Below are positions 1-26,372 of a DNA stretch of 32,000 nucleotides, in pieces. A program made the translations under genes and the position numbers. This stretch comes from an uncultured archaeon (GTDB lineage: Archaea; Iainarchaeota; Iainarchaeia; Iainarchaeales; DATDZZ01). Where the stretch lies: the NCBI GenBank assembly GCA_964373795.1, contig CAYJVY010000011.1, positions 1 through 32,000 of the forward strand. Direction: 5' to 3'. The stretch's first letter is position 1; each line of letters opens with the position of its first letter. A model generated the notes under the pieces. It saw only the letters and a program-made list of their open reading frames with translations. It had not been told where the DNA came from and did not search any database.

Positions 1-1457
1 ATTATTCCATGACTCGCATCAACCTCTACTTTGTCTCCGTCCTTAAGGATTTTGGTTGCATGCTTTGTTCCAATTACACAAGGGACACCCAACTCACGGG
101 AAACAATTGCTGCATGACTTGTCAAACCTCCTTGATCAGTAATAATTGCTGAAGATTTTTTCATAGCGGGAAGTAAATCAGGCGATGTAGCACTGGATAC
201 AAGAATTTCACCTTCTTGAAATTCATTCATATCATCAGGATGATTAACAATTCTCACAATTCCTTTTACTAATCCTGGACTTGCAATTTGCCCAGAAAAC
301 TCATCTTTTTGCTCTACAACTTCTTCAAACACGTGCTCCTTCCACCATTTTTTTGCTTCTTCTCCAATCAGGATTTTTGTTCCACCCCAAACACTAATAT
401 TTACAGAATAATTCCTTCTTTCAGACAATTCTTTGACAGAAGGATGCACACCTTTTTCAAGCAAAGCAATTATTTCACTCGGAGTACAAAATCTTAAATC
501 ATTAAAAGGCAAATAAAACTGCTTGGAAATTTCCTTGACAAGTTGCGAAGCAAGGTAAAAAGACATAACAAGAGATTCCTTTCTGTAGCCTTTAATAAAA
601 ACAGTTTTCCTAGCCAATTCAAACAAATGTTTTTCTTCCCCAGTTAAATCCGCTTCTTTCAAAGCTTCTTCAAGTCTTTGCTTCAACCTTTTTTGTTTGG
701 ATTTTTTGTGCTCAAGCATTTCTTCGAGATTGTTTTTCTTTATCAAATCATTCAATTGCTCTTCAAAAAAACTCTTTGGAAGCTCAGGCCCAGAATGACT
801 ATAAGTAATCCAGCAATAATTCCTCCAATGCTCTTCAAGCAATTTGTCAATTTCTTTTTTCGGCAAACCTTTTTTTGCCTTCACGGCTAGTTCCAGCATT
901 TCATTGTTTTCTTTTACTGAAAAAGTTTCCTCAAAAGGAGTTGTAAGAATACTAAAATAATCTCCTGCTTTTCTTGGCAGACTTTTTTGTTTTATTTTTT
1001 TATCCAAGATCTTCTGGCAGTTGTTTGTCAAATGTCCAGTTTCCATGTCTATGGCAACCAAGCCAAAACCATAAAAGCAAATTTCTTTGTCAATGTCAAA
1101 AATTTTGTTGAAATAATGCAACAATTCTTTGTTTGAAAACTTTCCAAAATCTTTTTTGTTCAATTCCTTAAGCAGGGCAAACATTTTTTCGCCGTTTTCC
1201 AGAACTTTGGATTCCACTTCATAAACAAGTCTTTTGTCTTTAGAAAAAAATTCAAAATTATAATCCCCGGTTTTTTTGAATTCATCCAAATTAATAGCCC
1301 ATCTCAAATTGCCATTAGAGTTTTCAGTTGCAGCAATTGTAACTGGAATTCCATTAAACCTTGCAAGCTTTGGATCAAGCCAAGAATACTCATTCAACAG
1401 TAATGCAAGAAAATTCCCATTGTACTCGTGAATTATTGCAGTCAGTTTTTTACTCAT
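1..1457 (-). CDS. Swivel-phosphohistidine-domain protein, paralog A. Unknown N-terminal domain plus C-terminal PEP-utilising-enzyme mobile domain. The 3' end is truncated by the window edge.
   Basis: Absent from the ORF track because no stop lies inside the window. Manual codon-by-codon reverse translation from the ATG at 1455-1457 is stop-free down to position 3 (485 codons): [23 protein letters not shown]...[25 protein letters not shown]...[10 protein letters not shown]...[22 protein letters not shown]...[50 protein letters not shown]. It is collinear with, and highly similar to, the 1462..2931 product. The motif GGxT[SC]HAAIVxRE is the PpsA/PPDK/Enzyme I swivel-His signature. Confidence 0.85.
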   Translation of the reverse strand, partial: [485 protein letters not shown]

Positions 1458-1461
1458 TTTT

Positions 1462-2931
1462 TCACCCTTTCACCACTCTAATAATTCCATGAGAGGCATC
1501 AACTTCTACTTGATCGCCATCTTTGAGTATTCGTGTAACAAACTTCACTCCCACAACACATGGCACTCCTAATTCCCTTGAAACAATTGCAGCATGACAT
1601 GTTAGTCCGCCTTGTTCTGTAATAATTGCTACTGCCTTTTTCATTGCAGGCAATAAATCTGGTTGAGTAGCAGTTGAAACTAATACGTCGTGTTCAGTTA
1701 CTTTTGCCATATCTTGGACAGAGTTAACAATTTTCACTATTCCTCTAACAAGTCCTGGAGAAGCTACTTGGCCATGCAATTCATCAACATTTCTTTCAAT
1801 TTCTTCTTCATTAACATTTTTTCTATACCATTCTCTTGCTTCTTCTCCAATTAAAACAAATTCAGGAGCAACACTTTTCCTGAAAACAACGCAATAGTTT
1901 CTTCTCTCACTTAACTCGAAAATAGGTGGATGAGTTCCTTTAACAAGCAAATCTCTTATTTCTTGAATAGTGCAAAACCTTAATTCACGAAAAGGAATGT
2001 AAAACCGTTTAGACATTTCTTTTACAAGCATTGCCACTAAATAAAAAGACAAAATCATTACTTCTTTTCTTAAGCCTTTCAAGAAAACAACATTTCTTCC
2101 TAAATCAAAAAAGTAGGCCTCTTCTCGAGTTAAATTTAATTCTTTTTTTACTTCCAAAACTTTTTCTTTAATTAGTTTTCTTTTCTCTTTTTTGTGTTTC
2201 AAAATATCTTGTAAATTATTTTTTTCAAGCAAGTCATTTAACTCTTCTTCAAAAAAGCTTTTCGGAAGTTCTGGCCCTGAATGAGAATAAGTAATCCAAC
2301 ACCATTTCTGCCAATGGTCATGCAAAGTTTTAATTTTCTGCTCGGATTTTAACTCACCTTTTTTTACCTTCAAAGCCAATTCAAGCAATTCTTTATTTTC
2401 TTCAGCTGACAAAATATCTTCATCAGGCATTGTAAGAATTGAAAAATATTCAGCTTTTTTTGATGTTGCTTTTTTCTCCAAAATAGAGTTTAACTTATTT
2501 GTAAGAAAATCATTTCCTAAATCAATTGCAACAAAAGTAAAACCTTCCGCACAAATATTTTCATCCAAAACAAGGATTTTATTAAAATAATGCAGCAATT
2601 CCTTATTAGACAATTTAGAAAAATTAGTTTTATTAAATTTTTCAAGCAATTTAACCATTTCATTAGTTGTTTTCAAATGACCTTTTCTTAATTCAAAAAT
2701 TAAGTTTCTGTTTTTGATAAAAGTTTTCAAACCTTTTTCTCCTATTTCTTTCCAGTTATCTAAATCAATTCCCCAACGCAAAGTGCCTTGATTATTTTCC
2801 ATTACATCAGTTGCCATTTTAATTCCAATTAGTTTCTCCAATTTGTCAGAATACCAGCCTTCACCATTGAAAAGCAAGGCAAGAATATTCCCGTTATATT
2901 CATGCACCATAATTGTTTGTTTATCAGCCAT
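1462..2931 (-). CDS. Swivel-phosphohistidine-domain protein, paralog B (489 aa).
   Basis: The C-terminus reads [17 protein letters not shown]...[46 protein letters not shown], matching the PEP-utilisers mobile domain. The N-terminal ~400 aa show no ATP-grasp or TIM-barrel motifs. The stop lies 4 nt from the start of paralog A. Confidence 0.85.
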   Translation of the reverse strand: [489 protein letters not shown]

Positions 2932-4515
2932 TTACTCGCCTTCTCTATCAAGTATGCGAACAATTGCATGTGTTGCATCTACTTCCACAGTCATGCCGTC
3001 CTTCAGAACTTTTGTTGCGTGCTTTGTTCCTATAACGCAGGGTTTTCCTAATTCCCTTGAAACAATTGCAGCATGACAAGTAATTCCTCCTAGATCTGTT
3101 ACTATTGCTCCTGCTTTTTTCATTGCAGGAACAACATCAGGATTAGTTGCATGAGCAACTAAAATGTTTCCTTCATTCATTTTAACCATGTCAGCTGGAC
3201 TCTCAATTATCTTCACTACCCCGCGGACAATTCCAGGACAAGCACAGTCTCCCAATAAGTTCTTTTCTTTAAAAGAATCAATATTTGTTGACTCCATCTT
3301 AATTCCTGCCATGAATTCCTTTGCTTCTTTTCCAACAAGCATTTTTACATTCTCATGATGAAGGTAAAGGACATGATATTTGTGTCGAGCATTAAGCTCT
3401 GATGGATTTGACTCTATTTTGCCTAAAAGAATGTCAACTATTTCATATGGGTAAAGCCATTGGCTTTGTTTCAAACTCAAGTTCTTTCTTTTGCATAACT
3501 CTCGCAAAATCTTGTCAACAACAAACATTCCAAAATACAAAGCATCTTTTCTCAAAGCTTTTGTGTAAACCATGTCTTGAGCAATTCTCAAAAGCTTTTC
3601 ATGCTTTCCATGCACTCCAATGTGTTTGAATAATTCTTTTTGTCTTTCAATTAAATTTTTTTTGTTTTTCTCAATCCTTGTAATTAGTGTTTTAATATCT
3701 GGATTTTGCCTAACAATTCCATGCAGGGTTTCAATAAAATATTTTTTGCTCCAAGCAGGACCAATATACATGAATGGAAGCCATTGGAATTCATAAACAT
3801 GTTTTTCTAGTAAAGAATTAATTTCTGGAAAATTTTGTGAAAGATTTTCTTCTATTTCCTTTGGCGCGCTTTGAAGGAAAAAATTCCAAGCTTTCTCGTT
3901 TTCCTGAATTTTTACGCCTATTTCTAACAAAGATTTTTCCTCTAACTGTGCAAAACTTTCTTTTGTCGGAGTAGTAAGAGTACTGAAAACCTCGTTAGCT
4001 CTAAGTGAAAGACTATTTTTCTTTATCTTTTGCTCAATATAGGCTAAAAGATATTTTGTAAACAATTGATGATCAAATTCCAAAACTACCCATAGCACTC
4101 CTGTCTGATGACAATTTGACTGAACAGTTGAAAGTCTTTCATAAACTTTTGCCAATTCTTTGTCCGAAAAGTTTTGTACATTAATTTCACGAATTTCTTT
4201 AGCTATTTTCATGTAGTCTTCAGAGTAGTCAATTATTTTCTTGTTATGTTTTTCAGCCCAATCAATGTCTTCCAAGATTTTATCCAAAATTCTTTGACCC
4301 ATTAAAGAAAATCTCATTCTTGGAAAAATTAGATCACTACAACCTTCATGACACAAAACAATGGATTTCCCTAAATTATAACTCATGCCAAATTGCTTCT
4401 GGTTAATTGCTCCCCTCATAGGGTAAAAAAACATCAAAGGAGTTGATCTAGGAATTTCCTCCATTAAAAACCATAAATCTTCAACTGTTTTTGTTGCAGA
4501 CAACTCATTCACCAT
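2932..4515 (-). CDS. Swivel-phosphohistidine-domain protein, paralog C (527 aa).
   Basis: The C-terminus reads [22 protein letters not shown]...[46 protein letters not shown]. It shares the N-domain motifs [25 protein letters not shown] and [13 protein letters not shown] with the other paralogs. Its stop directly abuts the start of paralog B. Confidence 0.85.
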   Translation of the reverse strand: [527 protein letters not shown]

Positions 4516-6085
4516 TTTTTTGTTTTAAAATTTTTATTACTCCAGTTGAAGCATCAACTTGGACATGTGTTCCGTCTTTTAGAATTTTTGTAGCAATCCT
4601 TGTTCCAACAATGCAAGGAATTTTCAGCTCGCGAGAAACAATTGCAGCATGACAAGTAATTCCTCCAACATCTGTAATAATTGCTGAAGCTTTCTTCATT
4701 GCAGATACAAGATTAGGATTAGTGGAATGGCTAACCATTATGTCTCCTTTATCCATTTTAAACATTTCATTAGGATGATTAACTAGTTTTGTAATTCCTT
4801 CAACTTGGCCTTCAAAAGCAGTTGTTCCAAGAATCTGTGTAATGTTTTCGTAAACTTCTTCTTTGTAAATCTGAGAAAAAAATCTTTGCGCATGATCTTT
4901 TGAAATGAATTCAAATTTTCCGTCCAAAACCCGGGCAACTGAAAACTTAATTCGTTCATTCAACTCATTCGCATCAATTTGTCCTGTATCCAAAGCTTTT
5001 ACTAATTCTTGCTTCAAAGAGTATCTAACTTGATCCAAAGTCAAATGCAATCTTTTCGCAATTTCCTTGAACAAAGGCTCTGAGGAATAAGATCCGAAAT
5101 ACATTGCATCTTTTCTCAAGCCTTTCAAATAAATCTGGTTCTGGACAAAAAAAACTAATTCTTTTTCATCTTTGCTTAAATCAAGTTTTTTCAAGAATTC
5201 TTTTTGCTGTTTCTCCAATTCTTGTTCAACTTTTTGAATCCCTTCAAGCATTTTTTTTGCATTAATTTTTTCCTGCAAAGAACTCTTAATTGCTTTAATA
5301 AAGTATTCCTTCTTCCAAGAAGGACCTTCATACATAAAAGGCAGCCAACAATAGTTCTGGAAATGCTTTTCCATTAAATCATTGAATTCTGAATCAGTTT
5401 TTGGAAGAAGTTTTTCTATCTCTTCAGGAGATTTTTTAAACAATTCAATTGTTTCAGATTTTGTGACATGAGACAAAAGTTTATAGAAATCATTTTGTTC
5501 TTCAGTTATTGCAGAACCCTTTAAAGGCGTTGAAAGAACACTGAAAACGTTTGCAATATCTAGGTTTAATTTTTTCTCTTTAATTCTTTTTTCCAACAAG
5601 TCTTTCACATGCTTTGAAAGCCATTCATGCTCGAATTCAAGCAAAATTCCCCATTGCCCAGAAATATGTGAAGCAAGATATGTGTCATAATATTCAACAA
5701 ACAATTGTTTTAATTCTTCATTTGAAAATTTAGAGAAATTCTTTATTTTCAAAAGCTTTCTGCCAACTTCAAAATATTTTTGCGCACAACCGTAAATATT
5801 TTGGTCTTTCTGTTTCCACCAAGCATGATCTGATAACAATTTTTGCAACAATATTTTGCCGTTTTCCTTGAATTGGTCTCTTCGCAAAAACAAGCAAGTG
5901 TCCTTGTTGACAAAGGAAACAGCCGCGTCCATTGGTTTTCCAAAATCTTGAAACAAATAAGAATACGCACACCATAATTCAGCACAAGTCATTGGATTGA
6001 TTTTGCGAATTTTCTCCATAACAAACCATTCAACGATTTTCGAATTAGACATGCCATTACCATTGCTTAAACCAGTTTTATTCAT
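4505..6085 (-). CDS. Swivel-phosphohistidine-domain protein, paralog D (526 aa). The start may instead be an internal Met.
   Basis: The C-terminus reads [22 protein letters not shown]...[46 protein letters not shown]. N-domain motifs are [25 protein letters not shown] and [13 protein letters not shown]. It overlaps the start of paralog C by 11 nt. Confidence 0.8.
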   Translation of the reverse strand: [526 protein letters not shown]

Positions 6086-6276
6086 GTTTTTTCACCTTAA
6101 TTATTTTTTCCATTCAACTCATTTGTTCAAATTCAATCTTTTTTTGATTAATTGCTTTTTTCGTTTTGTGTTTTATTTTAATTTCAGAAATTTTTTTAAA
6201 ATATTCTTGAATGAAAATTCTTGAAATCAAATAATCAATTGATTTACTTCTATGCATGAAAACACACTTCATTAAA

Positions 6277-6594
6277 TTAACTTTTTAAAACCAAAAAAAT
6301 AATGTAAATTACTAGCAAGTAAACAAATAAATCTGAAATAAAAACAGTTAAAGCAAGTAACACTATTGCAACAAATAATCCAAGAAAAAAATCAGGTGAT
6401 TTTCCACAGTCATCATCTACTTCAGAATTAGAAATTTTTTTCAATACAAAGTAAATCAAGAAAAGAATTAATAAGTAAACAAAAGACTCTGAAATAAAAG
6501 AAGCTAATGCAATCAAAATAATGGAAACATATAATACGCTAGAGGAAAGCATTCTTCCAAATCTATCATGCATTAAAGATTTAACTAAAGACAT
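6277..6594 (-). CDS. Small integral membrane protein with an internal tandem duplication (2 x 2 TM).
   Basis: The two halves align: IILIALASFISESFVYLLILFLIYFVLKK versus AIVLLALTVFISDLFVYLLVIYIIFLVLKS. They are joined by the acidic linker SNSEVDDDCGKSPD. The duplication is also visible at DNA level. Same strand as the flanking genes. Confidence 0.55.
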   Translation of the reverse strand: MSLVKSLMHDRFGRMLSSSVLYVSIILIALASFISESFVYLLILFLIYFVLKKISNSEVDDDCGKSPDFFLGLFVAIVLLALTVFISDLFVYLLVIYIIFLVLKS

Positions 6595-6606
6595 TAAATC
6601 ACTTTG

Positions 6607-7065
6607 TTAATGAGTTGCTGGAACAGGTTGAACTACTTTTTTTACAACCTGTTTTAGAGCTTGAATTTTGTGTTCTCTTGGAACATACAATTCTTTAGGA
6701 AATTTAACCCAAGGAGTTAACAAGCCTTCATAAATTTGATGCTCTTTTTCTAAGTCAACTCTTACAACATACTTTCTTGCAAATTTATTCCAAGCACTCC
6801 AAGCCTGCAAATATTTGAAATGATACTTAACAGTATAATGCACTAAAAAAATTAATGGAATTAAAAGTAATTTACTTAAAAAAATGGCTATAATTCCTAA
6901 AAGAATGCATGAAACAAATAAAACCCAAAAATTAAAGTATCTTTGAAGCTCTAAAAGTTTCATTGAAATATATTTATCACTAACCTCTCCCCTTGTTTTG
7001 TAATCAAAGTTTTCAGGATTTAAATGTAAATCAATTCCAGATCCTTTAACTAATTTTAAAGACAT
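6607..7065 (-). CDS. Small membrane protein (152 aa), paralog of 7132..7458.
   Basis: The N-terminus MSLKLVKGSGIDLHLNPENFDYKTRGEV is followed by a two-TM hairpin and a ~50-aa tail. It is collinear with the neighbouring ORF (DLKLVKGHNYEINLSPDKLKFERRDEV plus a TM hairpin). Confidence 0.55.
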   Translation of the reverse strand: MSLKLVKGSGIDLHLNPENFDYKTRGEVSDKYISMKLLELQRYFNFWVLFVSCILLGIIAIFLSKLLLIPLIFLVHYTVKYHFKYLQAWSAWNKFARKYVVRVDLEKEHQIYEGLLTPWVKFPKELYVPREHKIQALKQVVKKVVQPVPATH

Positions 7066-7131: not shown

Positions 7132-7458
7132 TTAATCCATTCTAGTCAAAAACTTTGAATTCCAAGTTTCTTGATCATCTAATTTATCTCCCCAATCAAA
7201 TTGAGTTTTAAAAGTATGAATCATTAAAGGAACTAAAAAAATCAATAACCATTCAGAAAAAATAAAAGATAAAGCTATTAGTACAAGAGTTAAACCAAAG
7301 AAATTCCAATACCTTATTTTAAGCTTTGTTACAAGAACATGCCATTTAATGAATTCCCCTCCAACCTCATCTCTTCTTTCAAACTTTAATTTATCTGGAG
7401 AGAGATTTATTTCATAGTTATGGCCTTTTACAAGCTTCAAATCTTTTCCTTCACTCAT
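7132..7458 (-). CDS. Small membrane protein, paralog of 6607..7065.
   Basis: The ORF track gives 7132..7479. The start at Met8 (MSEGKDLKLVKG, nt 7458) is preferred by alignment with the paralog. It has a two-TM hairpin (FFGLTLVLIALSFIFSEWLLIFLVPLMIH). Confidence 0.5.
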   Translation of the reverse strand: MSEGKDLKLVKGHNYEINLSPDKLKFERRDEVGGEFIKWHVLVTKLKIRYWNFFGLTLVLIALSFIFSEWLLIFLVPLMIHTFKTQFDWGDKLDDQETWNSKFLTRMD

Positions 7459-7480
7459 ACACAACCCTTCCATTCTCACA

Positions 7481-7600: not shown

Positions 7601-8266
7601 CTATTTTTCAGTAATATTTTCAAGCAAGTATGGAAGTAATTTGTTTTCAGCCTTGCGTAAATGTTCTTGAAAAGAAGAAGGAGAAAGCTTTGCTAAATCA
7701 GCTAATCTTTCAAGTATTATTTTTCTGGGATACTCGTAATAACCATTTCTGTAAGCCAAGAGAATCGATTTTTTTTGTTGCTCTGTAAGCTTTGGCATTA
7801 AATGAGGAATATAAATATCTGTTAAATTTTCTTGATAAATACTTTGAGAATGAATTGTTCCAAACTTGGAAACCTCTTTTAATAGATTTGATAAATTTTC
7901 TTTCTTCCAAGAAGCTAATTCAATGTATTGAAAGCCGTCAGGTTTAACTGTTACTGGCTTGACTAAAAAAACATCTGGAGTGAAATACATTTGCAAATGA
8001 GATTCTTTTGCTGGAACAGTTATAGTGTAAACAACAAAGTTTCCTTCTCTTTCAATGTTTTGAATTCTTTCCTCTTTAGAAATAGCAGTGAAATACTTTT
8101 CTATTTGCTTTTTCTCTCCTAAAATAATGTTTCCAGCAGTCATTATTGCAACATTGTTTTGAATCACAGTATTTAATGGAAAGGTAAGCTTTGTAATATT
8201 AAATTTTGTTGCAAACTTTATTGACAATGAATTTGGATGAGTGAACTTTAATTTAGCAACCCACAT
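7601..8266 (-). CDS. HTH_10 (bacterio-opsin-activator-type) helix-turn-helix transcriptional regulator.
   Basis: The C-terminus LTEQQKKSILLAYRNGYYEYPRKIILERLADLAKLSPSSFQEHLRKAENKLLPYLL matches the archaeal Bat/HTH_10 signature (LT.rQ...L..A...GYy..PR...l.eLA..lgis.st..ehLR.AE.Kl). Confidence 0.7.
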   Translation of the reverse strand: MWVAKLKFTHPNSLSIKFATKFNITKLTFPLNTVIQNNVAIMTAGNIILGEKKQIEKYFTAISKEERIQNIEREGNFVVYTITVPAKESHLQMYFTPDVFLVKPVTVKPDGFQYIELASWKKENLSNLLKEVSKFGTIHSQSIYQENLTDIYIPHLMPKLTEQQKKSILLAYRNGYYEYPRKIILERLADLAKLSPSSFQEHLRKAENKLLPYLLENITEK

Positions 8267-10716: not shown

Positions 10717-11196
10717 ATGGAAAAAAAACTGACAGTAGGATTTTTTTCTTTCACTGGAGACGAGGGATGCATGATTGAATTCCTTGAAATTTTAAATAAT
10801 CATTACTTTGATTGGAAAAAAATTCTGGACATAAAGTATTGCAAGCAACTTAAATCAAAGAATGACTTCTCAAAACTTGACGTGGCATTTGTAGAAGGAT
10901 GTATAAGCACTTTTGCAGAAGAAGAAAAACTGAAAAAAATTAGAGAAAACTCTAAATTTGTTGTCAGCATTGGCACTTGCGCCATTAATGGCCAGCCAAG
11001 CAATTTAAGAAACTTTTTTGACGAAGAAAGAAAAAAAGAAATCCAATTCCTTTTAGATAGATTCAAACATTTAGAAAAAGTTAAAGCACCTCCAGAAATA
11101 ATAAAAGTAGATGACATAGTAAATGGTTGTCCAATGATTGAAGAACAATTTATTAATACATTAAATAAATATTTGAAGCAATTCGGAGTAATTTAA
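10717..11196 (+). CDS. [NiFe]-hydrogenase small subunit, truncated (proximal-cluster module only).
   Basis: Sequence elements are VGFFSFTGDEGCM, GTCAINGQP (compare GxCA..GG) and VNGCPM (compare PGCPP). It is only 159 aa, so there is no room for medial or distal cluster domains. It lies immediately upstream of, and abuts, the large subunit gene (TAA then ATG). Confidence 0.7.
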   Translation: MEKKLTVGFFSFTGDEGCMIEFLEILNNHYFDWKKILDIKYCKQLKSKNDFSKLDVAFVEGCISTFAEEEKLKKIRENSKFVVSIGTCAINGQPSNLRNFFDEERKKEIQFLLDRFKHLEKVKAPPEIIKVDDIVNGCPMIEEQFINTLNKYLKQFGVI

Positions 11197-12501
11197 ATGC
11201 ATGCAGAAAATTTCAGCATTAATTTAGAAAACCTTTCAAAAATAGAAGGACATACAGATTTAGAAATACTCGTAAAAAACGGTAAAGCTGAAACAATTAA
11301 ATTAAAGATAACAGAAAATAAAAGGTTTTACACTCAAGGAGTTAGAGGAAAAGATGTAAGAAATGTCCCAAACCTTGTAAGCAGAATTTGTGGAACTTGC
11401 AGTATTGCTCATTTAAGTTGTTGCACTGAAGCAGTTGAAAAAGGTTTAGGCATTACTCCAAGCAATCAAACAATGCTTTTACGAAAACTAACTTATAATG
11501 GATTAATCATAAGAGATCATGCAATGCATTTGTATCTATTTGTCTTACCAGACTTGTTTAACAAAGACTCAATACTTGAATTTGATGAAAACAACGAAGA
11601 ACAACACGAACTAGTTCATGACGCATTTGAAGTAAAAAAAGCAGGAAACGAGTTATGCAAAGTAATTGCAGGAAGAGCAATTCATGCAACTTACATGCAA
11701 GTAGGAAGTTTTATGAAAATCCCTGTAAAAGAAGAACTAATAAAAGCAAAAGAACTGCTTTTAAAAGTTCGACCAAAAGTGTTAAAACTAATAGACATAT
11801 TTTATAAATGCGATTTCTTGTTTAACAGGAATACAAATTTTGTTGCATTAGTAAACAAGCCTTTCAGCTTCCTTGAAGGCGAAATCGCAAGTTCAAGTGG
11901 AATATGTATTCCTGAAAGTCTTTACTTTGAATACCTTAAAAGAGTTGTAATTCCTTACTCCCAAGCAACAGGGTTTGAATTCAAAGGAAAAGATTACATG
12001 GTTGGAGCTCTTGCAAGACTTAATTTAAACAAGCATAATTTACATAAAGAAACCCAAAAAGACTGCATTAAATATCTAAAAGTTTTTCCAAGCAACAATA
12101 TTTATTCAAACAATCTTGCACAAGCAATAGAAATATTGCATTGCATTGATGAAAGCATTGAATTAATTGAAACAAGTACTTTTGTTTCAGAACCCAAGCC
12201 AGAAATAAAGCCAAAAGAAGCAACAGGAATAGGAGTAATTGAAGCTCCAAGAGGAACTCTTTATTACAGATTAGACATTTCAAAAGAAGGAACAGTAAAA
12301 TTTGCTGACTTAGTAATTCCTTCAGCTCAAAACCAAATAAACATGGAAAACGATGTAAAAGAATTAGTTAACACTTGCCTTGAAGAAAATCAATCAAAAG
12401 AATTCATTCAACACGAAATAGAAAAACTCATTAGGGCATACGATCCATGCATGAGTTGTGCATCGCATTTCCTTAAATTCAATTGGAAAAAAGTGAAATA
12501 A
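11197..12501 (+). CDS. [NiFe]-hydrogenase large (catalytic) subunit, group-3-like size.
   Basis: The N-terminal Ni-Fe ligand motif is RICGTCSIAH (RxCGxCxxxH). The C-terminal motif is DPCMSCASH (DPCxxCxxH), followed by a 10-residue extension (FLKFNWKKVK) of the kind removed by a maturation endopeptidase. Length is 434 aa. Confidence 0.85.
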   Translation: MHAENFSINLENLSKIEGHTDLEILVKNGKAETIKLKITENKRFYTQGVRGKDVRNVPNLVSRICGTCSIAHLSCCTEAVEKGLGITPSNQTMLLRKLTYNGLIIRDHAMHLYLFVLPDLFNKDSILEFDENNEEQHELVHDAFEVKKAGNELCKVIAGRAIHATYMQVGSFMKIPVKEELIKAKELLLKVRPKVLKLIDIFYKCDFLFNRNTNFVALVNKPFSFLEGEIASSSGICIPESLYFEYLKRVVIPYSQATGFEFKGKDYMVGALARLNLNKHNLHKETQKDCIKYLKVFPSNNIYSNNLAQAIEILHCIDESIELIETSTFVSEPKPEIKPKEATGIGVIEAPRGTLYYRLDISKEGTVKFADLVIPSAQNQINMENDVKELVNTCLEENQSKEFIQHEIEKLIRAYDPCMSCASHFLKFNWKKVK

Positions 12502-15962: not shown

Positions 15963-17240
15963 CTAAACTAGTTTTGTTTGTTCCACTTTTTCTTTTAATT
16001 TTTTTTCTTGAGGCTTGAGTTGGGATAGAAGTTCAATTACTTTATCTATTTCGTCTTCTGAAAGCAAGTCAAACACTTGTTTTACTTCAAAGGCTTCATT
16101 GAAATCAGTTTCGTTCAAGTTTTTCTCCAACAAATTAAAACCTAAATTTATAATGCTTGCCTTATTTTTTTGCAATTCTCGTAACTCTAAAATCTTTTTT
16201 TTAAAAGATTCAAGCGAAAAATCTTTGCTTAAAGAAATAATTGCTTTTCCTTGAAATAATTTCAATAAAGGCGCTAAATCAATATCTGCTTGTTGAACTC
16301 CTTTAGCTAAAGAGCCAAGCAACTTTAATCTAATCATTGGAGTTAGCTTAAAATTCTCTGAACTTAAATCTTTTTCAATTGCTTCTTTCACTGTTAAAGC
16401 AATTTCTTCTAAAGAAGCTTTTTCAAACTTCAGTTTATGATAGAATAGTTTTCGTTGATTTGGAAAAGAAACAAATCTCAAATCATTTGATTCAGTATCA
16501 AATAATACAAATCCTTTAGGTTTTTCTGCTTCCAGTTTCTTCATTTGAGTATGAATAGTCGACCCAGGAATAAAAAACAAGCCTTTATTTAATTTGTGAA
16601 CTGCATGCCAATGAAGATGCCCATTAATGTATAAATCAAATCCGACAGGCAAATCACTTAAAGAAATAGATGCAGTCATTTCATCATCAAATGGAAGAAA
16701 CTCTTTCAAGGACTGATGAAAAACAAATACATTAAATGCGTTTTCAATTGGCTTTGAATTCCATAACTGAATTGCTTCTTTAGCTTTTTTTTCAGGAACT
16801 CCTCCCAATCCGTGAACAGCAATTTTCTCCAAACCTTTTTCAATCAACAAAGTTTCAGCATGAAAATGAATTAAAGCTTGAGCAGAATTCAATATCTGCA
16901 AAGCATTTGATTTTTCTTTAGAACGAAATTCATGAGTTCCATGAATTGCAATTACTGGAATTCCTTGAAAAACAATTTCTTTTTTTTCAGGCTTTAATTT
17001 AAATAACTTGATTTCAGATTTTCTTGCTTTCCTAGGCAAGGAAAACAATTCAAAAGCTTGATGCCAAGTTTCCTGAGTAGGAATACTTGAATCAAACAAG
17101 TCTCCAGGCATTAAAATTAATTCAGCTTGTTCTTGAATAGCTAAATGAAATGCTTGCTCTAAAGCATTAAAAGAGTCGTTCGCGCGCTCGGAATTTAATG
17201 CAAACCCTAAATGAGTATCAGAAATTACTGCTATTTTCAT
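15963..17240 (-). CDS. mre11: Mre11/SbcD-family DNA repair nuclease (calcineurin-like metallophosphoesterase).
   Basis: Phosphoesterase motifs occur in order: MKIAVISDTHLG, PGDLFD, AIHGTHE, FVFHQ, NGHLHWH and IPGS. The ~150-aa C-terminal extension matches archaeal Mre11. Confidence 0.65.
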   Translation of the reverse strand: MKIAVISDTHLGFALNSERANDSFNALEQAFHLAIQEQAELILMPGDLFDSSIPTQETWHQAFELFSLPRKARKSEIKLFKLKPEKKEIVFQGIPVIAIHGTHEFRSKEKSNALQILNSAQALIHFHAETLLIEKGLEKIAVHGLGGVPEKKAKEAIQLWNSKPIENAFNVFVFHQSLKEFLPFDDEMTASISLSDLPVGFDLYINGHLHWHAVHKLNKGLFFIPGSTIHTQMKKLEAEKPKGFVLFDTESNDLRFVSFPNQRKLFYHKLKFEKASLEEIALTVKEAIEKDLSSENFKLTPMIRLKLLGSLAKGVQQADIDLAPLLKLFQGKAIISLSKDFSLESFKKKILELRELQKNKASIINLGFNLLEKNLNETDFNEAFEVKQVFDLLSEDEIDKVIELLSQLKPQEKKLKEKVEQTKLV

Positions 17241-17914
17241 TCAAGGTCACGCTCCTTGAACGCGACAGCTCCGCCGGTTGCTTCGGCGTCACTAAAAATT
17301 GGCAAAGACTTTAAATCACTTAATTTTTCTAAAACAAAGTCCGGGTTTGATTTCAACAAAGTTTTTCTAGAATTATAACCATTAACAAAAGCAGCAGATT
17401 TTACTCCGCCATGCTTTGCTGTTTCAATGTCATGAACCATGTCTCCAACATATAAAACATGTTCAGGAATATGATCCAAATTTTCAACTACTTCATGAAT
17501 TTTATTCATTTTATTCACTACTTCACAATAAATTTTGTCAAAAAATTTTTCTAACCCGAATAACTTTATTTCTCTTTCAATGAATTCTTTTGGATGACTA
17601 CTTAAAACATCTAATCTAATGTTTTTGTTTTTCAACCATTGCAAGGTATTAATTACATCCGGATATAAATGTTTTAATTGAAGACTTTTAAAAAAAGGCA
17701 GAAAAACATTTTTTTGTTTTTCATCAATTTTTATATTAATTTTTTTATAAAACTCTGGCCAAGGAAGAATATATTCATCTCTAAATTTCTCTAAAGAAAT
17801 TCTTTTCCCGCCATAATATTTTACTACATGCATTGTTGCTTCATACACGTTTTCCAAATCGTTTACTATTACGCCGTTCCAATCAAAAATAACTGCTTTA
17901 ATCATTTCACTCAC
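17237..17914 (-). CDS. HAD-superfamily hydrolase.
   Basis: Motif I is VIFDWNGVIVND, motif II is VLSS, and motif IV is YVGDMVHDIETAKHGG. The stop overlaps the mre11 start in an ATGA arrangement. Confidence 0.7.
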   Translation of the reverse strand: MSEMIKAVIFDWNGVIVNDLENVYEATMHVVKYYGGKRISLEKFRDEYILPWPEFYKKINIKIDEKQKNVFLPFFKSLQLKHLYPDVINTLQWLKNKNIRLDVLSSHPKEFIEREIKLFGLEKFFDKIYCEVVNKMNKIHEVVENLDHIPEHVLYVGDMVHDIETAKHGGVKSAAFVNGYNSRKTLLKSNPDFVLEKLSDLKSLPIFSDAEATGGAVAFKERDLE

Positions 17915-18803
17915 TAAAAATTAATTTCATTAAATCATTCTTTTTTTGTTGAGATAAAAACATTAATGGATACAAAATCATTAAATCATATTCTTTGAAT
18001 TTTTCTTCTACAGGAATTACATTAAAATCTTGTTTTGAAAAAACAACTGCATTAATGGAATATTTTTCCATTAATGCTGGAACTTCATTCAAGGAATGAA
18101 CTTTGAAGTCTCTAAAAGAATTCCATGAAACAAGTTTTTGAAAAAGCTTTTCAACAGCTTCATGATTTTCTTCACTTGAAATTGGAAAAATATTGCAACC
18201 TCTTTTCATTAAAAGCCATGCAGCAATTAAATCTTCTTTTCGCGCTTCACTGAAAATAAAACAATTTCCTTCAACGCCTAAAGGCAAGCCTTTTAACCCT
18301 GAAACTTCTTCAAAAAAAATAAAAAACTCTTTTGGATGAATTTCAATAAAAATTGTTTTAACAGGCTTGGATAAATTCACTTTCAAACCTGGAATGGAAT
18401 TCAAAACTTGTTTTCCCACAAGGTTTTCAGTGTCTTTACTTGAAAAAGAATGCTGGCCTCTTCTTTGAACAGATAACTTAAAAGAGTCTCCTGAATGCAA
18501 AAAATTTTTTGCATGAAGTAAAACCTTTTCCTGAATTTCTTCAAGCACGGGATTAGAGTAATTAAATGCTTTTGCAATTGAATGAATTCCAAAAACTAAT
18601 CCAAGTTTTTCACTTAAATCAGGAGAAGAAAAAATGAATAATCTTCCAGGAGCTTTATCAATTTTTTCAATGTTTATTGAATGCTTTTTTGCAATCAATT
18701 TAATGTGTTCAACTAATTTTTTTACAAAAAACTGTTTAACAAAATGAGTTTTAAGAGACATCTCTGAAGAGGTTTTCACAATCAAGCAATTAAATTCCTG
18801 CAT
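17907..18803 (-). CDS. ThiI-like THUMP-domain protein with a degenerate PP-loop and a shortened C-terminus.
   Basis: The N-terminus LIVKTSSEMSLKTHFVKQFF is ThiI-like. The THUMP-like segment is FKLSVQRRGQHSFSSKDTENLVGKQV. Next comes GLPLGVEGNCFIFSEARKEDLIAAWLLMKRG, where ThiI has LLSGGIDSPVAAWLMMKRG. Confidence 0.55.
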   Translation of the reverse strand: MQEFNCLIVKTSSEMSLKTHFVKQFFVKKLVEHIKLIAKKHSINIEKIDKAPGRLFIFSSPDLSEKLGLVFGIHSIAKAFNYSNPVLEEIQEKVLLHAKNFLHSGDSFKLSVQRRGQHSFSSKDTENLVGKQVLNSIPGLKVNLSKPVKTIFIEIHPKEFFIFFEEVSGLKGLPLGVEGNCFIFSEARKEDLIAAWLLMKRGCNIFPISSEENHEAVEKLFQKLVSWNSFRDFKVHSLNEVPALMEKYSINAVVFSKQDFNVIPVEEKFKEYDLMILYPLMFLSQQKKNDLMKLIFSE

Positions 18804-18850
18804 AAAAGTCTTTGCTTAGGAAAACAATAAATAGGTTTGCGAATTATAAA

Positions 18851-18859
18851 TTTATATAA
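18851..18859 (+). promoter_or_regulatory. Candidate archaeal TATA box (TTTATATAA) for the tRNA-Cys transcript.
   Basis: This is the only strong TATA-like element upstream of tRNA-Cys. It would place the transcription start near 18883, giving a leader of about 60 nt. Confidence 0.3.
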
Positions 18860-18942
18860 TCTCAGTAAAAGATCTTTCACGAACGAAGTGAGCATGCTCA
18901 GTCAAAGACTGTGCGCATACTCTTCGGACGTTACGGCGATGT

Positions 18943-19013
18943 GGTGGAATGGCAGATCGGCTATGCGCTCGCCTGCAGAGCGAGATAGGAGGGTTCAACC
19001 CCCTCTTCCACCT
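18943..19013 (+). tRNA. tRNA-Cys(GCA): tRNA-Cys (anticodon GCA).
   Basis: Hand-folded. The acceptor GGTGGAA/TTCCACC has 7 Watson-Crick pairs. The anticodon stem is CTCGC/GCGAG with loop CTGCAGA (U33, GCA). The T-arm is GAGGG-TTCAACC-CCCTC. The discriminator is U73, the known tRNA-Cys identity base. No CCA is encoded. Confidence 0.85.
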
Positions 19014-19124: not shown

Positions 19125-19138
19125 ATAAGATTGGAAGT

Positions 19139-19351: not shown

Positions 19352-19535
19352 GAATTCACCTAAAAAATATGTATAAAGAAGAATATAAATATTTGCAAGA
19401 CTTACAGATATTTTTATCAAAATTTGATTGAACACTAAATTGAATGGTAATTAAGATTTATAAAAAGAAAAGAGACTTTTAAAAAGGTTTGGTCGGAAAA
19501 ATAGTATATTAATTACACGAATTTTTAGTGATTTT

Positions 19536-20322: not shown

Positions 20323-23300
20323 ATGAAATCAATTGCTTGGTTTAAAGAAATCAAAAAAGAAGACGTAGGAATAGTTGGAGGAAAAGGAGCTAATTTAGGG
20401 GAAATGGTTAACGCAGATTTTCCAGTTCCTCTAGGATTTTGCATTACTGCTCAAGCATACTTTAAATGGCTTGAAGACACTGGATTAAAAAAAATAATAA
20501 TTAAAAAAATTAATTCAATTGACGTTGAAAACACTGAACAATTAGAGCAAACAACTAAAGAAGTAAGAGAACTAATTATTAAAAAAGATTTAAGTCTAGA
20601 CTTAAAATCAGAAATACTTAAAGCCTATCACACTTTAAGCGAGAAAAAGATTGGATGGATTGGATTAACTGAATATGTTTACGTAGCTGTTCGTTCAAGT
20701 GCAACAGCAGAGGATTTACCAAGCATTGTTGAAGACTCACATGTATTAGTAAAAATTAATGGCAAAACAATTTATGACTCAATAAAAAATATTTACAACC
20801 TTTATGGAGATTGCACAAATAATGAAGTAGAAGTTATTGCTCTTGAAAACAATGAAGCTAAATGGATAAAAGCTCAACAAATATATTGTCATCCAGCAAA
20901 AGAAAAAAAATTATATAAAATAGTAACAGAAACAGGAAGAGAAATAACAATCACAAAAAACCACACATTAATAGTCTTAGATGAAGATACTTTGAATCCT
21001 AAAACAATTTCTATTGATGAACTCAAAAACGGCCAAAAAGTTCCAGTAACAAAATCAATTCCATTTATTGATTCTAATTTGAAATTCATAGATGTATTGG
21101 AATACATTCAAGATAATGACATATTTTTAGAAGAAGATTTAGTTTACATTAAAAATAATTCCTCCAATTGGACAATTCAAAACCCGTTAAAAAGACATAT
21201 TTCAATAAACAAAAACCTTGCTTATTTTTTAGGACTGTATTGCGCAGAAGGAAGCACATATCTTGAAAACGGAGTAATAATAACAAACTCAGATAAAAAT
21301 GTAATAGAAAAAACAAAAACGTTTTTAAGAGAACTTGAATTATACAACAATCAAAAAATAAACAAGCATTCCATTAGAGTTTATTGTAAAACATTAGTAA
21401 GACTTTTGCACGTCATTATAGGCAAACCTTTGAATATTAAAGGAAAAGGAAAATCAGCACAAATAAAAAAGGTTCCAAACTTTATTTTTGATTGCTCAAA
21501 AGAAATTATTGGAACTTTTTTAAGCGGTTGTTTCGATGGAGATGGATATATTGGTAGAGAAGCTATAGAATACACATCAATATCTGAAATGTTAATTGGA
21601 GGAATTGTAAAGCTTTTAGAATTACTAAATATAAATTTTTATATTCGAAAGAAAAAAAATACTTTCACCATATATATTCCTGCTTCACAAGCAGAACAAT
21701 TCAAAAACATGATTAATTTAAATCATTCTGAAAAATCAAAAAAATTGGATAATTTGATTACAAGGTATAATAAAAGAGAAAAACATGCAGAATTCAAAAA
21801 CCCGTTCATTGTTTCCCCAACCTTGTCAAAAAACCTAAGAAACGCCTTTAATGAAACACTAGAAAAAAGACTTGGAGAAATTGCAAAATGCATTCAATGC
21901 AAAAACTCTGTAGAAAAAACAAGTTACTATAAAAATAGATTAAGATATTATTGCAAACACTGTAAAAAAACATTTTATGAAAAAGAAATCATAAAAGAAG
22001 AAATTGATAAATATGTTTACTATGATGAAAAAGGCAGATTCAAAAAATATTTTACTCCGTGGAATAAAGCACTAATTAGGGGAAGATTGTCTAGTACAAG
22101 GTTTGAAAAATTTATTAAAAAAAATAATTTGAAAGATTATGTGCAATTTTTTAATAATAGTGTTTTGTGGGACCAGGTAAAAGAAATTCAGGAAATTGAT
22201 TACAATGGAATGGTTTATGATTTTACTGTGCCAAAAATAGAAAACTTTGCGGCTGGATTAGGAGGGATCATTACTCATAACTCAGCCTCTTTTGCAGGGC
22301 AGCAAGACACTTACTTGAATATAATTGGCGATCAAAAATTATTAGATGCAGTAAAAAGATGCTGGGCTTCATTGTTTAATGCAAGAGCAACTTATTATAG
22401 AAAAAAACAAGGATTTAGAACAGAAAAAGTAGGAATATCAGTGGTAGTGCAAAAAATGGTTAACTCTGAAGTAGCAGGAGTAATGTTTACTTCCACTCCA
22501 ACAGGAGATGAAACAAAAATAGTGATTGAAGCAGCATATGGATTAGGAGAGGTAGTTGTATCAGGAAGCGTTACTCCAGATACATACATTCTAGATAAAG
22601 AATCGCTACAAATTTTAAGCAAAAAAACTTCAACTCAAACTTGGATGACAATAAGAAAATCTGGGGCAAGCCAAAAAGAAGATGTAAACGAAAAAATGCA
22701 AGAAAAACAAAAACTTGAAGACAAGCATATAATTGAGTTAGCTAGAATTGGAAAACGAATTGAAGCTCATTATGGGCATGCACAAGACATTGAATGGGCT
22801 TTAGAAAATGACAGGCTTTATATTGTGCAATCAAGAGCAATTACAACTTTAGGATTAGGAAAAAAAGCTTTAGAAAAAGAAACTCAAAAAATTGAAACAA
22901 CTGCAAAACCTTTAATTATTGGATTAGCTGCTTCTCCTGGAATTATTTCAGGAAAAGTAATAATTGTTCCAACAGTTGAAGATATTCAGAAAGTAAAAAC
23001 AGGAGACATTATTGTAACAATAATGACTGATCCAGACTGGGTTCCAATAATGAGAAAAGCTTCAGGAATAATTACAAACGAAGGAGGATCAACTTGTCAT
23101 GCAGCAATTGTTTCAAGAGAATTAGGAATTCCATGCGTTGTTGGAACAGGAAATGCAACAGATATTTTAAGAGACAACGAAGAAATAACTTTAGATGGAT
23201 TTACTGGAAGAATTTTTGAAGGAAAAATCGCAATATCCAAGCCAAAAGAAGAATTAGAAAAAAAAGAATTAATTCAAGAAAAAGAAATAAAAAAAATTGA

Positions 23301-24387
23301 AACAGCTTTGGAAAAACTTGATTTAAAAGAAATTGAAAAAGAAGAAAAAGAATCAAGGAAAGCATTAGATGGAAGATTAGAGGAATTAAAAAAAGAAATA
23401 AAAGAACACGAAGAAGAATTACTGAAACTAAAAGAAATTGAAAAAGAATCAAAAGAAAAAGCTAAAGAAGGATTAACTGAATTGCTTGCAAAAAGAGCAA
23501 TTAAAGTTAAAGTAAATGTTGCCTTGCCTGATGCAGCAGAAAAAGCAGCTAAAACAAATGCAGACGGAGTAGGCTTATTGAGAGCGGAACACATGATTAC
23601 TGCTTCAGGAATTCATCCAGCAAACTTTATTAGAGAAGGAAAAAAACAAGAATTAGTGAAAACAGTTAAAGAAGGAATTAAAAAAGTAGCAGAATTATTT
23701 AAAGAAAAACCAGTATGGTATAGAACATTTGATGCTAGAACAGATGAATTCAGGCACTTAAAAGGAGGAGAAAAAGAACCAAAAGAAGCCAATCCAATGC
23801 TTGGATGGCATGGAATTAGAAGAGCTTTAGATGAACCAGAAATAATTAAAGCAGAGTTCACTGCAATAAAAGAATTAGTAAAAGAAGGATTCAATAATAT
23901 CGGAGTAATGCTTCCATTTGTTGAAGCAGTTGAAGAAGTAAAAAAAGCAAAAGAAATAGCTAAAAGCATTGGCTTACAACCATTAAAAGACGTTGAATTC
24001 GGAGTAATGATTGAAACCCCTGGAGCAGTATGGATTATTGATGAATTAATTGAAGAAGGAATAAGCTTTATTTCATTTGGAACAAACGATTTAACTCAGC
24101 TTACTCTTGGATTGGATAGAAATAATGAAAGAATTCAAAAATGGTTTAATTCAAAGCATCCAGCAATTCTAAGGCAATGCGAATACGTAATAAAAAAATG
24201 CCTTAAAGCAGGGGTAAAAACATCTATTTGCGGACAAGCAGGATCAGATCCTGAAATGGTGAAAAAATTAATTGAATACGGAATTACAAGTGTTTCCGCA
24301 AACATTGATGCAGTGGAAAAAATTAAAGAACTAGTTCTAGAAGAAGAAAAAAAGAAAATCTTAAACAAAATCGATAAAGAAAACTAG
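20323..24387 (+). CDS. ppsA: Phosphoenolpyruvate synthase (pyruvate, water dikinase) precursor containing an intein.
   Basis: The N-terminal ATP-grasp region has VGGKGANLGEM and VAVRSSATAEDLP|...|SASFAGQQDTYLN. The swivel domain has ASPGIISGKV...GGSTCHAAIVSRELGIPCVVG. The C-terminal PEP/pyruvate TIM barrel has DGVGLLRAEHM, GVMIETPGAV and FISFGTNDLTQ. The precursor is 1354 aa; after removing the 520-aa intein it is 834 aa. Confidence 0.9.
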   Translation: MKSIAWFKEIKKEDVGIVGGKGANLGEMVNADFPVPLGFCITAQAYFKWLEDTGLKKIIIKKINSIDVENTEQLEQTTKEVRELIIKKDLSLDLKSEILKAYHTLSEKKIGWIGLTEYVYVAVRSSATAEDLPSIVEDSHVLVKINGKTIYDSIKNIYNLYGDCTNNEVEVIALENNEAKWIKAQQIYCHPAKEKKLYKIVTETGREITITKNHTLIVLDEDTLNPKTISIDELKNGQKVPVTKSIPFIDSNLKFIDVLEYIQDNDIFLEEDLVYIKNNSSNWTIQNPLKRHISINKNLAYFLGLYCAEGSTYLENGVIITNSDKNVIEKTKTFLRELELYNNQKINKHSIRVYCKTLVRLLHVIIGKPLNIKGKGKSAQIKKVPNFIFDCSKEIIGTFLSGCFDGDGYIGREAIEYTSISEMLIGGIVKLLELLNINFYIRKKKNTFTIYIPASQAEQFKNMINLNHSEKSKKLDNLITRYNKREKHAEFKNPFIVSPTLSKNLRNAFNETLEKRLGEIAKCIQCKNSVEKTSYYKNRLRYYCKHCKKTFYEKEIIKEEIDKYVYYDEKGRFKKYFTPWNKALIRGRLSSTRFEKFIKKNNLKDYVQFFNNSVLWDQVKEIQEIDYNGMVYDFTVPKIENFAAGLGGIITHNSASFAGQQDTYLNIIGDQKLLDAVKRCWASLFNARATYYRKKQGFRTEKVGISVVVQKMVNSEVAGVMFTSTPTGDETKIVIEAAYGLGEVVVSGSVTPDTYILDKESLQILSKKTSTQTWMTIRKSGASQKEDVNEKMQEKQKLEDKHIIELARIGKRIEAHYGHAQDIEWALENDRLYIVQSRAITTLGLGKKALEKETQKIETTAKPLIIGLAASPGIISGKVIIVPTVEDIQKVKTGDIIVTIMTDPDWVPIMRKASGIITNEGGSTCHAAIVSRELGIPCVVGTGNATDILRDNEEITLDGFTGRIFEGKIAISKPKEELEKKELIQEKEIKKIETALEKLDLKEIEKEEKESRKALDGRLEELKKEIKEHEEELLKLKEIEKESKEKAKEGLTELLAKRAIKVKVNVALPDAAEKAAKTNADGVGLLRAEHMITASGIHPANFIREGKKQELVKTVKEGIKKVAELFKEKPVWYRTFDARTDEFRHLKGGEKEPKEANPMLGWHGIRRALDEPEIIKAEFTAIKELVKEGFNNIGVMLPFVEAVEEVKKAKEIAKSIGLQPLKDVEFGVMIETPGAVWIIDELIEEGISFISFGTNDLTQLTLGLDRNNERIQKWFNSKHPAILRQCEYVIKKCLKAGVKTSICGQAGSDPEMVKKLIEYGITSVSANIDAVEKIKELVLEEEKKKILNKIDKEN
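20722..22281 (+). mobile_element. Intein (520 aa) with a LAGLIDADG homing endonuclease domain, inserted in the ppsA ATP-grasp motif.
   Basis: Block A is SIVEDSHVLV (Ser1). Block B is GREITITKNHTLIV (TxxH). The LAGLIDADG motifs are LAYFLGLYCAEGS and FLSGCFDGDGYIG. Blocks F/G are VYDFTVPKIENFAAG and GGIITHN, followed by the +1 Ser. Joining the flanks restores the conserved AEDLP-SASFAGQQ. Confidence 0.85.
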
Positions 24388-26257: not shown

Positions 26258-26372
26258 GGGCCTGTAGCTCAGTTGGTAGAGCACATGACAAATTAAATCA
26301 TTCAATAATTAATGATTGGTTTGGGTGAAGCTCTTAACCATGGGGTCAGGGGTTCGAATCCCCTCAGGCTCG
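26258..26372 (+). tRNA. tRNA-Lys(CUU): tRNA-Lys (anticodon CUU) with a 42-nt intron (26288..26329) at position 30/31.
   Basis: Hand-folded. The acceptor is GGGCCTG/CAGGCTC (one G-U pair). The D-arm is GCTC-AGTTGGTA-GAGC. The T-arm is AGGGG-TTCGAAT-CCCCT. Removing 26288-26329 creates the anticodon stem CATGG/CCATG and loop CTCTTAA (U33, CUU, A37). The mature length is 73 nt. Confidence 0.8.

Follow-up and report, generated by a model that had tools for sequence, protein, structure and literature searches.

How proteins that carry a phosphohistidine shuttle and no nucleotide site of their own are charged, and to what they pass the phosphate on, is the question raised by the first 6 kb of a 32,000-nucleotide stretch of an uncultured archaeon (contig CAYJVY010000011.1 of assembly GCA_964373795.1; hereafter the window). 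Four consecutive minus-strand genes, here termed A, B, C, and D, each encode an N-terminal domain (N-domain) followed by a C-terminal swivel domain, and their closest relatives carry the annotation Candidatus Diapherotrites, which belongs to the DPANN archaea. An initial annotation, made from the letters of the DNA, proposed that these proteins consist of a shuttle and an acceptor-binding module that would be charged in trans. We consider it probable, at roughly 0.7, that A-D are four diverged substrate-binding/phosphocarrier subunits of a split dikinase of the rifampin phosphotransferase (RPH) type, with the make-up of the H subunit of HpeHI and charged by a separate ATP-grasp protein.

The gene layout was taken from the list of open reading frames (ORFs) and their translation, and the junctions were read directly in the sequence. 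Both gave the arrangement that was first described: B and A are separated by a 4-nt gap, the stop codon of C abuts the ATG of B with 0 nt between them, and 11 nt are shared by D and C. Purine-rich, Shine-Dalgarno-like motifs (GGTGA or GGCGAG) are found upstream of the starts, and together with the tight junctions they make translational coupling across the array plausible. All four reading frames are intact. A and B share 55% protein identity, while C/D and all cross pairs share 31-37%, in agreement with the proposed division into two subfamilies with A and B close and C and D more distant. DNA identity among the paralogs is at most 65-75%, over local stretches, and for three of them separate orthologs were found in a second metagenome-assembled genome (MAG; locus L001). 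The initial annotation had named an assembly artefact as a way in which it could be wrong; the DNA divergence and the separate orthologs exclude this. The array reaches the window edge at position 1. In the syntenic L001, two further paralogs follow the ortholog of A, and the array therefore very probably extends past position 1. Four is thus the correct number of genes within the window, while it is very probably not the full count.

The only Pfam match in A-D was PF00391 (PEP-utilizers mobile domain; PEP, phosphoenolpyruvate), which is C-terminal in all four (E 2.5e-27 to 5.6e-24) and contains the catalytic His in the motif GGLTSH in A, GGLTCH in B, and GGITCH in C and D. Nothing significant was found by Pfam in the N-terminal ~380-420 aa, neither PPDK_N nor PEP-utilizers_C, and the ATP-grasp profile likewise gave no match in A-D. 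The swivel with its His, the missing ATP-grasp and TIM-barrel signatures and the lack of a nucleotide site in the chain are therefore as initially reported. The matches of A-D to NCBIfam models were all far under the curated cut-offs and were carried by the swivel region. For TIGR01418/TIGR01828 (PEP synthase/pyruvate phosphate dikinase, PPDK) they scored 104-133 bits against cut-offs of 598-740, and for NF041857 (RPH) 58-72 bits against 999. For PRK08296, which covers hypothetical swivel proteins of ~600 aa that may correspond to HpeH or Thauera PpsA, the best score was 108.7 bits against cut-offs of 578-730, in the swivel only. The swivel was found to be closest to that of PEP synthase, PpsA (E 1e-47 against its structure 8a8e). 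It is 48-52% identical to the swivel of the PpsA encoded in the window, which carries the TCH-containing stretch that had been quoted for this resemblance.

The N-terminal motifs described as private to A-D were recognised in the alignment, and several of them are near-invariant in an alignment of 108 family members. In B numbering, the near-invariant residues of the family are W212, G219, K285, R288, E305, R309, E324, and R343. All are kept in A-D, with R309Q in A as the sole exception. The catalytic His and a basic K..RK cluster are likewise near-invariant across the 108 members and present in A-D.

The fold of the N-domain was assessed with AlphaFold2 models of B (pLDDT 96.3, pTM 0.94) and D (pLDDT 94.1, pTM 0.91), both built from the 108-sequence alignment. 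When the models were compared to the PDB by Foldseek, the same six entries of Listeria RPH came out on top, spanning the whole query, for B with E 9e-16 and a query TM-score (TMq) of 0.57-0.59 and for D with E 6e-15 and TMq 0.52-0.55. The remaining PDB matches (PEP synthase, PPDK, pyruvate kinase, and Enzyme I) covered the swivel only, with TMq ~0.2. The N-domain of A-D is thus predicted to have the fold of the rifampin-binding domain of RPH, a fold that the authors of the RPH structure found in no other structure (PMC4844700). Of the possibilities raised for the N-terminal ~400 aa, the models agree with an RPH-type substrate-binding domain and speak against a new fold, a degenerate ATP-grasp, and a TIM barrel. 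With the family profile, an alignment to residues 525-878 of RPH was obtained (E 4e-31). In the motif LKGLRKE of B, K285 and K289 fall on R666 and K670 of RPH by both HMMER and hhalign, the register being that of a sequence alignment. R666, E667, and K670 form the phosphotransfer site of RPH, and the change R666A abolishes rifampin phosphorylation (PMC4844700).

An exhaustive profile search returned 3,658 representatives of the N-domain family, clustered at 50% identity, 2,172 of them with E <= 1e-10. A word-indexed search had given 3 proteins, or 8 with a small profile, and the reading of the family as rare was rejected. A profile scan of genome contigs with one of the alignments gave only 3 loci. 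The typical member has 480-520 aa and the same N-domain and swivel make-up as A-D, and there is no Pfam or NCBIfam model for the N-domain family. In DPANN archaea and Patescibacteria the family forms arrays of 1-10 diverged paralogs, where tandem arrangement is the rule and paralogs of one array are ~30% identical (Table 1). Fusions into a single chain in the RPH order of ATP-grasp, N-domain, and swivel were found in loci L020 (817 aa), L021 (796 aa), L025, L026, and L031. There are also giant single-ORF fusions with two to four modules, of which P0009 and the L018 fusion contain exactly one ATP-grasp each.

In related genomes a stand-alone ATP-grasp gene of about 315 aa (~311-330 aa) adjoins the arrays. 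The window, L001, and L007 share the gene order of an HTH_10 regulator (221-224 aa), two or three small membrane proteins, and the array. L007 ends with the ATP-grasp gene, a PPDK_N gene of 315 aa directly after the last module (Pfam E 6e-97), and L001 runs two paralogs past the A ortholog to the end of the contig. The order in L010, another Diapherotrites MAG, is HTH_10, one module, ATP-grasp. The stand-alone gene was also found in L011, on the bacterial contig with P0008, and in most metagenome loci. Among the stand-alone ATP-grasp loci that span 8 kb or more, N-domain/swivel genes were present in 13 of 15, with 1-6 per locus. The search for a stand-alone PPDK_N protein and the neighbourhood analysis that the initial annotation had proposed thus led to a partner in the relatives and, in the window, to ppsA only. 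The ATP-grasp family is large; its members in Micrarchaeota, Diapherotrites, and Patescibacteria share 57-73% identity with the protein of L007, and it has the invariant motifs GGKGA, VAVRSSAT.ED (VAVRSSATAED), ASWAGELE, TPRAIFYR, and RP.TT (QSRPITT). In every one of the 78 locus pairs, conservation was higher for the ATP-grasp (median identity 56%) than for the module that matched best (median 30%). Three unannotated neighbours of ~280 aa (L006 953-1816, L009 3398-4243, and a 284-aa gene on the P0008 contig) were considered as a hidden partner and rejected; the two that could be compared show no relationship to each other and no Pfam match.

The orthologs of A, B, and C in the window and L001 are under purifying selection, with dN/dS (nonsynonymous to synonymous substitution rates) of 0.07-0.15, rough ratios with dS near saturation, and the paralogs are old and maintained. 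For D no ortholog was found in L001. The initial annotation had taken a four-fold expansion to imply selection. Selection is borne out by these ratios, while a private four-fold expansion is not, as the array belongs to a system that is larger and widespread.

Altogether, the swivel with its His and the predicted RPH-type fold of the N-domain fit a phosphohistidine shuttle joined to an acceptor-binding module. Charging in trans, as initially suggested, is supported by the separate ATP-grasp found beside the modules or fused to them in relatives; PpsA as the likelier donor is not. We propose a cycle drawn from RPH and from the two-component dikinases PpsAB and HpeHI discussed below. The separate ATP-grasp subunit of ~315 aa would bind ATP, and the C-terminal swivel of a paralog would dock on it so that the His (446 in B) attacks the beta-phosphate, giving a pyrophosphorylated His. 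The gamma-phosphate would leave as inorganic phosphate, and AMP would leave as well. The phosphohistidine domain would then swing back to its own N-domain, where the basic cluster (K285, R288, and K289 in B) would place the phosphoryl group so that it can pass to a hydroxyl on the bound substrate.

The ratio of one ATP-grasp gene to several module genes, the single ATP-grasp in multi-module fusions, and the conservation of the ATP-grasp relative to the diverged modules suggest that one conserved hub would serve several substrate-specific spokes, at least four in this genome and probably six or more. From the ~30% identity of the paralogs and the conservation of each ortholog we infer that A-D act on different substrates. 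Our best guess is that these are small molecules, which phosphorylation would either trap after they have been scavenged or detoxify. That such a hub-and-spoke system operates generally in DPANN archaea and Patescibacteria, with one ATP-grasp charging up to ten substrate-specific modules that are sometimes fused into chains of 1,750-2,300 aa, is a more tentative claim, to which we give slightly less than even odds.

Several observations weigh against the split dikinase. No stand-alone ATP-grasp was found in the 32-kb window, where the ATP-grasp profile matches only ppsA. The array runs off the window edge, and it is from synteny that a dedicated ATP-grasp gene would be expected in this genome, just beyond position 1. 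Linkage of the two components is not obligatory, as L016 and L022 have an ATP-grasp without modules within 10 kb, and the available sequence of L008, L009, and L003 contains modules but no ATP-grasp. Comparison of the N-domain to RPH by sequence was not significant: hmmsearch with a broad N-domain-only profile gave E = 5 against RPH residues 514-763, hhalign of the N-domain alone gave P = 0.002, and no PDB entry matched a profile made from six close N-domains. Homology of the N-domain to RPH is thus not established by sequence alone, and the fold assignment rests on the predicted structures and the architecture. At the position of RPH Glu667 the family of A-D has Gly or Ala, and catalytic details may therefore differ from RPH. 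Finally, the neighbours of the arrays gave no clue to substrates besides a HAD-family hydrolase that recurs in other loci.

The strongest rival, which we nevertheless regard as unlikely, is that A-D have no dedicated partner and are charged by the resident PpsA, from ATP via its ATP-grasp domain or from PEP via its C-terminal domain. Its gene is the only one in the window with a PPDK_N-type ATP-grasp, the swivels of A-D are PpsA-like and read T[SC]H where RPH has GGLMTH, and their best NCBIfam and PDB swivel matches are PEP synthases; the stand-alone ATP-grasp family, too, lies near the N-termini of PpsA (E 6e-66). However, the ATP-grasp lies in the same operon as the modules, or is fused to them, in the syntenic and related loci, which makes a dedicated subunit the likelier phosphate donor. 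The tethered swivel of PpsA would also compete for both of its sites. Where the stand-alone family has its invariant ASWAGELE the resident PpsA reads SASFAGQQDT, and the family also has TPRAIFYR as an invariant motif of its own, consistent with a distinct family that possibly has its own docking partners. Somewhat less likely than charging by PpsA is that A-D work without any nucleotide-binding partner and move phosphoryl groups between small molecules via the swivel His. HpeH alone can move phosphate from 4-phosphoacetophenone to acetovanillone (PMC12167813), and the available flanks of some arrays (L008 and L009) contain no ATP-grasp. However, this exchange belongs to the dikinase cycle as a partial reaction and is not a physiological role, and in most loci a single conserved ATP-grasp adjoins the modules or is fused to them.

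It is improbable, and more so than partner-free transfer, that A-D are catalytically dead regulators that sense ligands or bind DNA. The model for this is haloarchaeal PspR, an archaeal RPH-like protein reported to bind a promoter and to be without RPH activity (PMC10948481), and an HTH_10 regulator is conserved beside the array. PspR, however, keeps an ATP-binding domain that A-D do not have, the His and the K..RK cluster are near-invariant throughout the 108 members and A-D, and multi-copy arrays and fusions to an intact ATP-grasp fit an enzyme better. Least likely of all, and in fact refuted, is that A-D are decaying fragments of RPH/PpsA-like proteins or an artefact of duplicated reads. 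The tandem arrangement and the missing ATP-grasp domain would suit this, and nothing else does: the four frames are open, the paralogs have diverged to 31-55% identity as protein and at most 65-75% as DNA, dN/dS against the orthologs in the second MAG is low, and the same architecture recurs in 3,658 cluster representatives. The split dikinase with a dedicated ATP-grasp subunit is therefore the reading that we retain.

Table 1. Coordinates and properties of features in the window and in related loci.
Feature	Locus	Coordinates	Strand	Size	Remarks
Paralog A	window	1..1457	minus	485 aa seen	~9 C-terminal residues beyond the window edge; His448; K289/R292/K293
Paralog B	window	1462..2931	minus	489 aa	predicted RPH-type substrate-binding domain ~1-383, swivel ~384-489; His446; K285/R288/K289
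Paralog C	window	2932..4515	minus	527 aa	N-domain and swivel; His481; K319/R322/K323
Paralog D	window	4505..6085	minus	526 aa	first gene of the array; N-domain and swivel; His479; K321/R324/K325
Three small membrane proteins	window	6277..6594, 6607..7065, 7132..7479	minus		between regulator and array
HTH_10 transcription regulator	window	7601..8266	minus	221 aa	PF04967, E 1.4e-17
Resident PEP synthase ppsA	window	20323..24387	plus	1354 aa	intein in ATP-grasp domain; 14.2 kb from array; not counted in the system
A and ortholog A'	window, L001				89% protein identity; dN/dS 0.066 (rough)
B and ortholog B'	window, L001				71% protein identity; dN/dS 0.15 (rough)
C and ortholog C'	window, L001	5025-6611 (C' in L001)			64% protein identity; dN/dS 0.15 (rough)
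Array	L001			5 modules	syntenic Diapherotrites MAG; C', B', A', then E', F'
Array	L007			4-5 modules	uncultured archaeon
Array	L008			5 modules	Methanosarcinales-labelled MAG
Array	L009			~10 modules	Woesearchaeota; one 945-aa double module included
Array	L011			4 modules	Patescibacteria
Array	L015			6 modules	metagenome contig
Fusion P0009	L006	2012-8941		2309 aa	three N-domain/swivel modules, one ATP-grasp, fourth module
Fusion	L018	9998-15256		1752 aa	one ATP-grasp and three modules
Fusions P0010, P0011				~1500 aa	single-ORF multi-module fusions
Fusion	L009	4243-7080		945 aa	double module
T4SS-like cluster	L010	11459-17498			Diapherotrites
T4SS-like cluster	L011	11398-20218			Patescibacteria-like
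T4SS-like cluster	L012	10938-15807			Patescibacteria-like
T4SS-like cluster	L016	1740-6876			Patescibacteria-like
HAD hydrolase	L007	12409-13011	minus	~200 aa	
HAD hydrolase	L012	2446-3057		~200 aa	
HAD hydrolase	L019	6805-7407		~200 aa	
HAD hydrolase	L032	3178-3774		~200 aa	

The HTH_10 regulator was found directly upstream of the array system in four archaeal loci (the window, L001, L007, and L010), and all four copies cluster together; that of the window shares 77% identity with the one in L001 and 51% with the one in L010. Two of the small membrane proteins between regulator and array, the second and third in Table 1, are recognisable as paralogs, and their orthologs occupy the same position in L001 (3800-4800) and L007 (4448-5266). 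No Pfam or PADLOC match was obtained for the small membrane proteins, which possibly belong to the same unit as the array. PADLOC also found no defence-system match for B, C, D, or the ATP-grasp. TrmB-family proteins occur as neighbours in four loci, but the window copy lies 8 kb off and was treated as a probable chance neighbour.

A HAD-family hydrolase of ~200 aa, a putative phosphatase, recurs beside modules or ATP-grasp in four other loci and may dephosphorylate products of the modules. The HAD gene of the window (17237..17914) fell outside the cluster of these hydrolases. In four loci the stand-alone ATP-grasp is followed by a cluster resembling a type IV secretion system (T4SS), with PrgI-, TraC-, and VirB4-like (AAA_10) genes and a T4SS pilin. 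In L011, L012, and L016 the cluster comes directly after the ATP-grasp, whereas in L010 two small ORFs lie in between. As this block is common to two domains of life, horizontal transfer is suggested. The five modules of L008 are interleaved with genes for S-adenosylmethionine-dependent methyltransferases and followed by a GDSL/SGNH hydrolase and a hexapeptide-repeat transferase (5226-6902, 11127-12065, and 17575-20070). A GDSL gene was also found near the fused gene in L006.

The resident ppsA carries an intein of ~500 aa with a LAGLIDADG homing endonuclease, which had been missed in the initial annotation. It is inserted inside the ATP-grasp motif, with AEDLP preceding the first intein residue, S, and SASFAGQQDT following the last intein residues, THN. 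The window has ~30% G+C and also encodes fibrillarin, Nop5, L10e, TrmB, and HTH_10 proteins. Between 9323 and 12865 there are genes for the alpha subunit of an ADP-forming acyl-CoA synthetase and for proteins resembling the small and large subunits of [NiFe]-hydrogenase, with a HycI-like maturation protease on the opposite strand. Besides a normal tRNA-Cys (18943..19013), a tRNA of 115 nt was found on the plus strand (26258..26372; Rfam 51.9 bits). It was missed by ARAGORN and is probably an intron-containing archaeal tRNA.

Literature searches gave no description of the DPANN/Patescibacteria subfamily, of the absence of a Pfam/NCBIfam model for it, of arrays with many modules per ATP-grasp, or of the giant fusions. 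Until now, split dikinases resembling RPH have been known only from free-living bacteria, where they serve phenol catabolism as one-to-one pairs. The interesting parts are the proposed hub-and-spoke organisation and the expansion in genome-reduced symbionts, while the mechanism itself has precedent. The subfamily lives in ultra-small, host-dependent archaea and bacteria, in which arrays of 4-10 modules fill 6-15 kb of a very small genome. If one ATP-grasp does charge many modules, the one-to-many dikinase would be a new organisational principle in the superfamily of PEP-utilising enzymes, loosely like Enzyme I feeding many branches of the phosphotransferase system. Organisms with minimal genomes would thereby have a modular set of kinases with which small molecules taken from hosts or the environment could be trapped or neutralised. 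If the paralogs differ in substrate, they would probably represent a major, unrecognised route of small-molecule handling (scavenging, trapping, or detoxification) and a set of ready-made ATP-dependent small-molecule kinases whose specificity modules could be exchanged. For structural work, the multi-module fusions are natural constructs.

Among characterised systems, A-D resemble most in organisation the two-component phenol dikinases HpeHI of Rhodococcus, CreHI of Corynebacterium, and the phenylphosphate synthase PpsAB of Thauera (PMC12167813), to which they were compared by description. HpeH shares homology with RPH's swivel and rifampin-binding domains and HpeI with its ATP-grasp domain, and the three pairs work in trans through a transient complex (PMC12167813). 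The architecture is thus not unprecedented, since the same split make-up is found in these enzymes (PMC12167813), and the mechanism initially proposed has a direct precedent in them. Like A-D, HpeH, CreH, and Thauera PpsA combine an RPH-like substrate domain with a C-terminal swivel. Their ATP-grasp is a separate subunit of ~35-40 kDa (HpeI, CreI, and PpsB), as it is in the relatives of A-D, and its motifs are PEP synthase-like rather than PPDK-like in both cases. The differences lie in number, setting, and detail. The phenol dikinases pair one H-type subunit with one ATP-grasp subunit, whereas the family of A-D has 4-10 diverged H-type genes per ATP-grasp. They act on phenols in the aromatic catabolism of free-living bacteria, whereas the family of A-D is found in DPANN archaea and Patescibacteria and has no aromatic-catabolism neighbours. 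A-D are also shorter (485-527 aa compared to 71.1 kDa for HpeH), and their swivel has the PpsA-type Thr (GG.T[SC]H) where HpeH and its homologs have Met (PMC12167813).

RPH of Listeria monocytogenes (PDB 5FBS, 5FBT, 5FBU, and 5HV1; NF041857, PRK06241 group) shares with A-D the predicted fold and the order of N-domain and swivel (TMq 0.52-0.59). The basic residues of A-D align by sequence with R666 and K670, and the fused relatives show the full RPH order. RPH is, however, a single chain of three domains, while A-D are without an ATP-grasp, are only ~16% identical to it, have Gly or Ala at the Glu667 position, and read TCH or TSH instead of MTH. PEP synthase and PPDK are similar to A-D in the swivel, and the partner ATP-grasp family is likewise PpsA-like, but A-D have neither the PF02896 TIM barrel nor the PF01326 ATP-grasp in the chain, and their acceptor domain, predicted to be of the RPH type, is unrelated. 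PspR of Haloferax mediterranei is, like the proposed subunits, an archaeal member of the RPH-like superfamily with ligand-binding and His domains (PMC10948481). It differs from A-D in that it is one chain, has retained its ATP-binding domain, and is reported to be a DNA-binding regulator (PMC10948481), whereas A-D are without that domain and are encoded in arrays.

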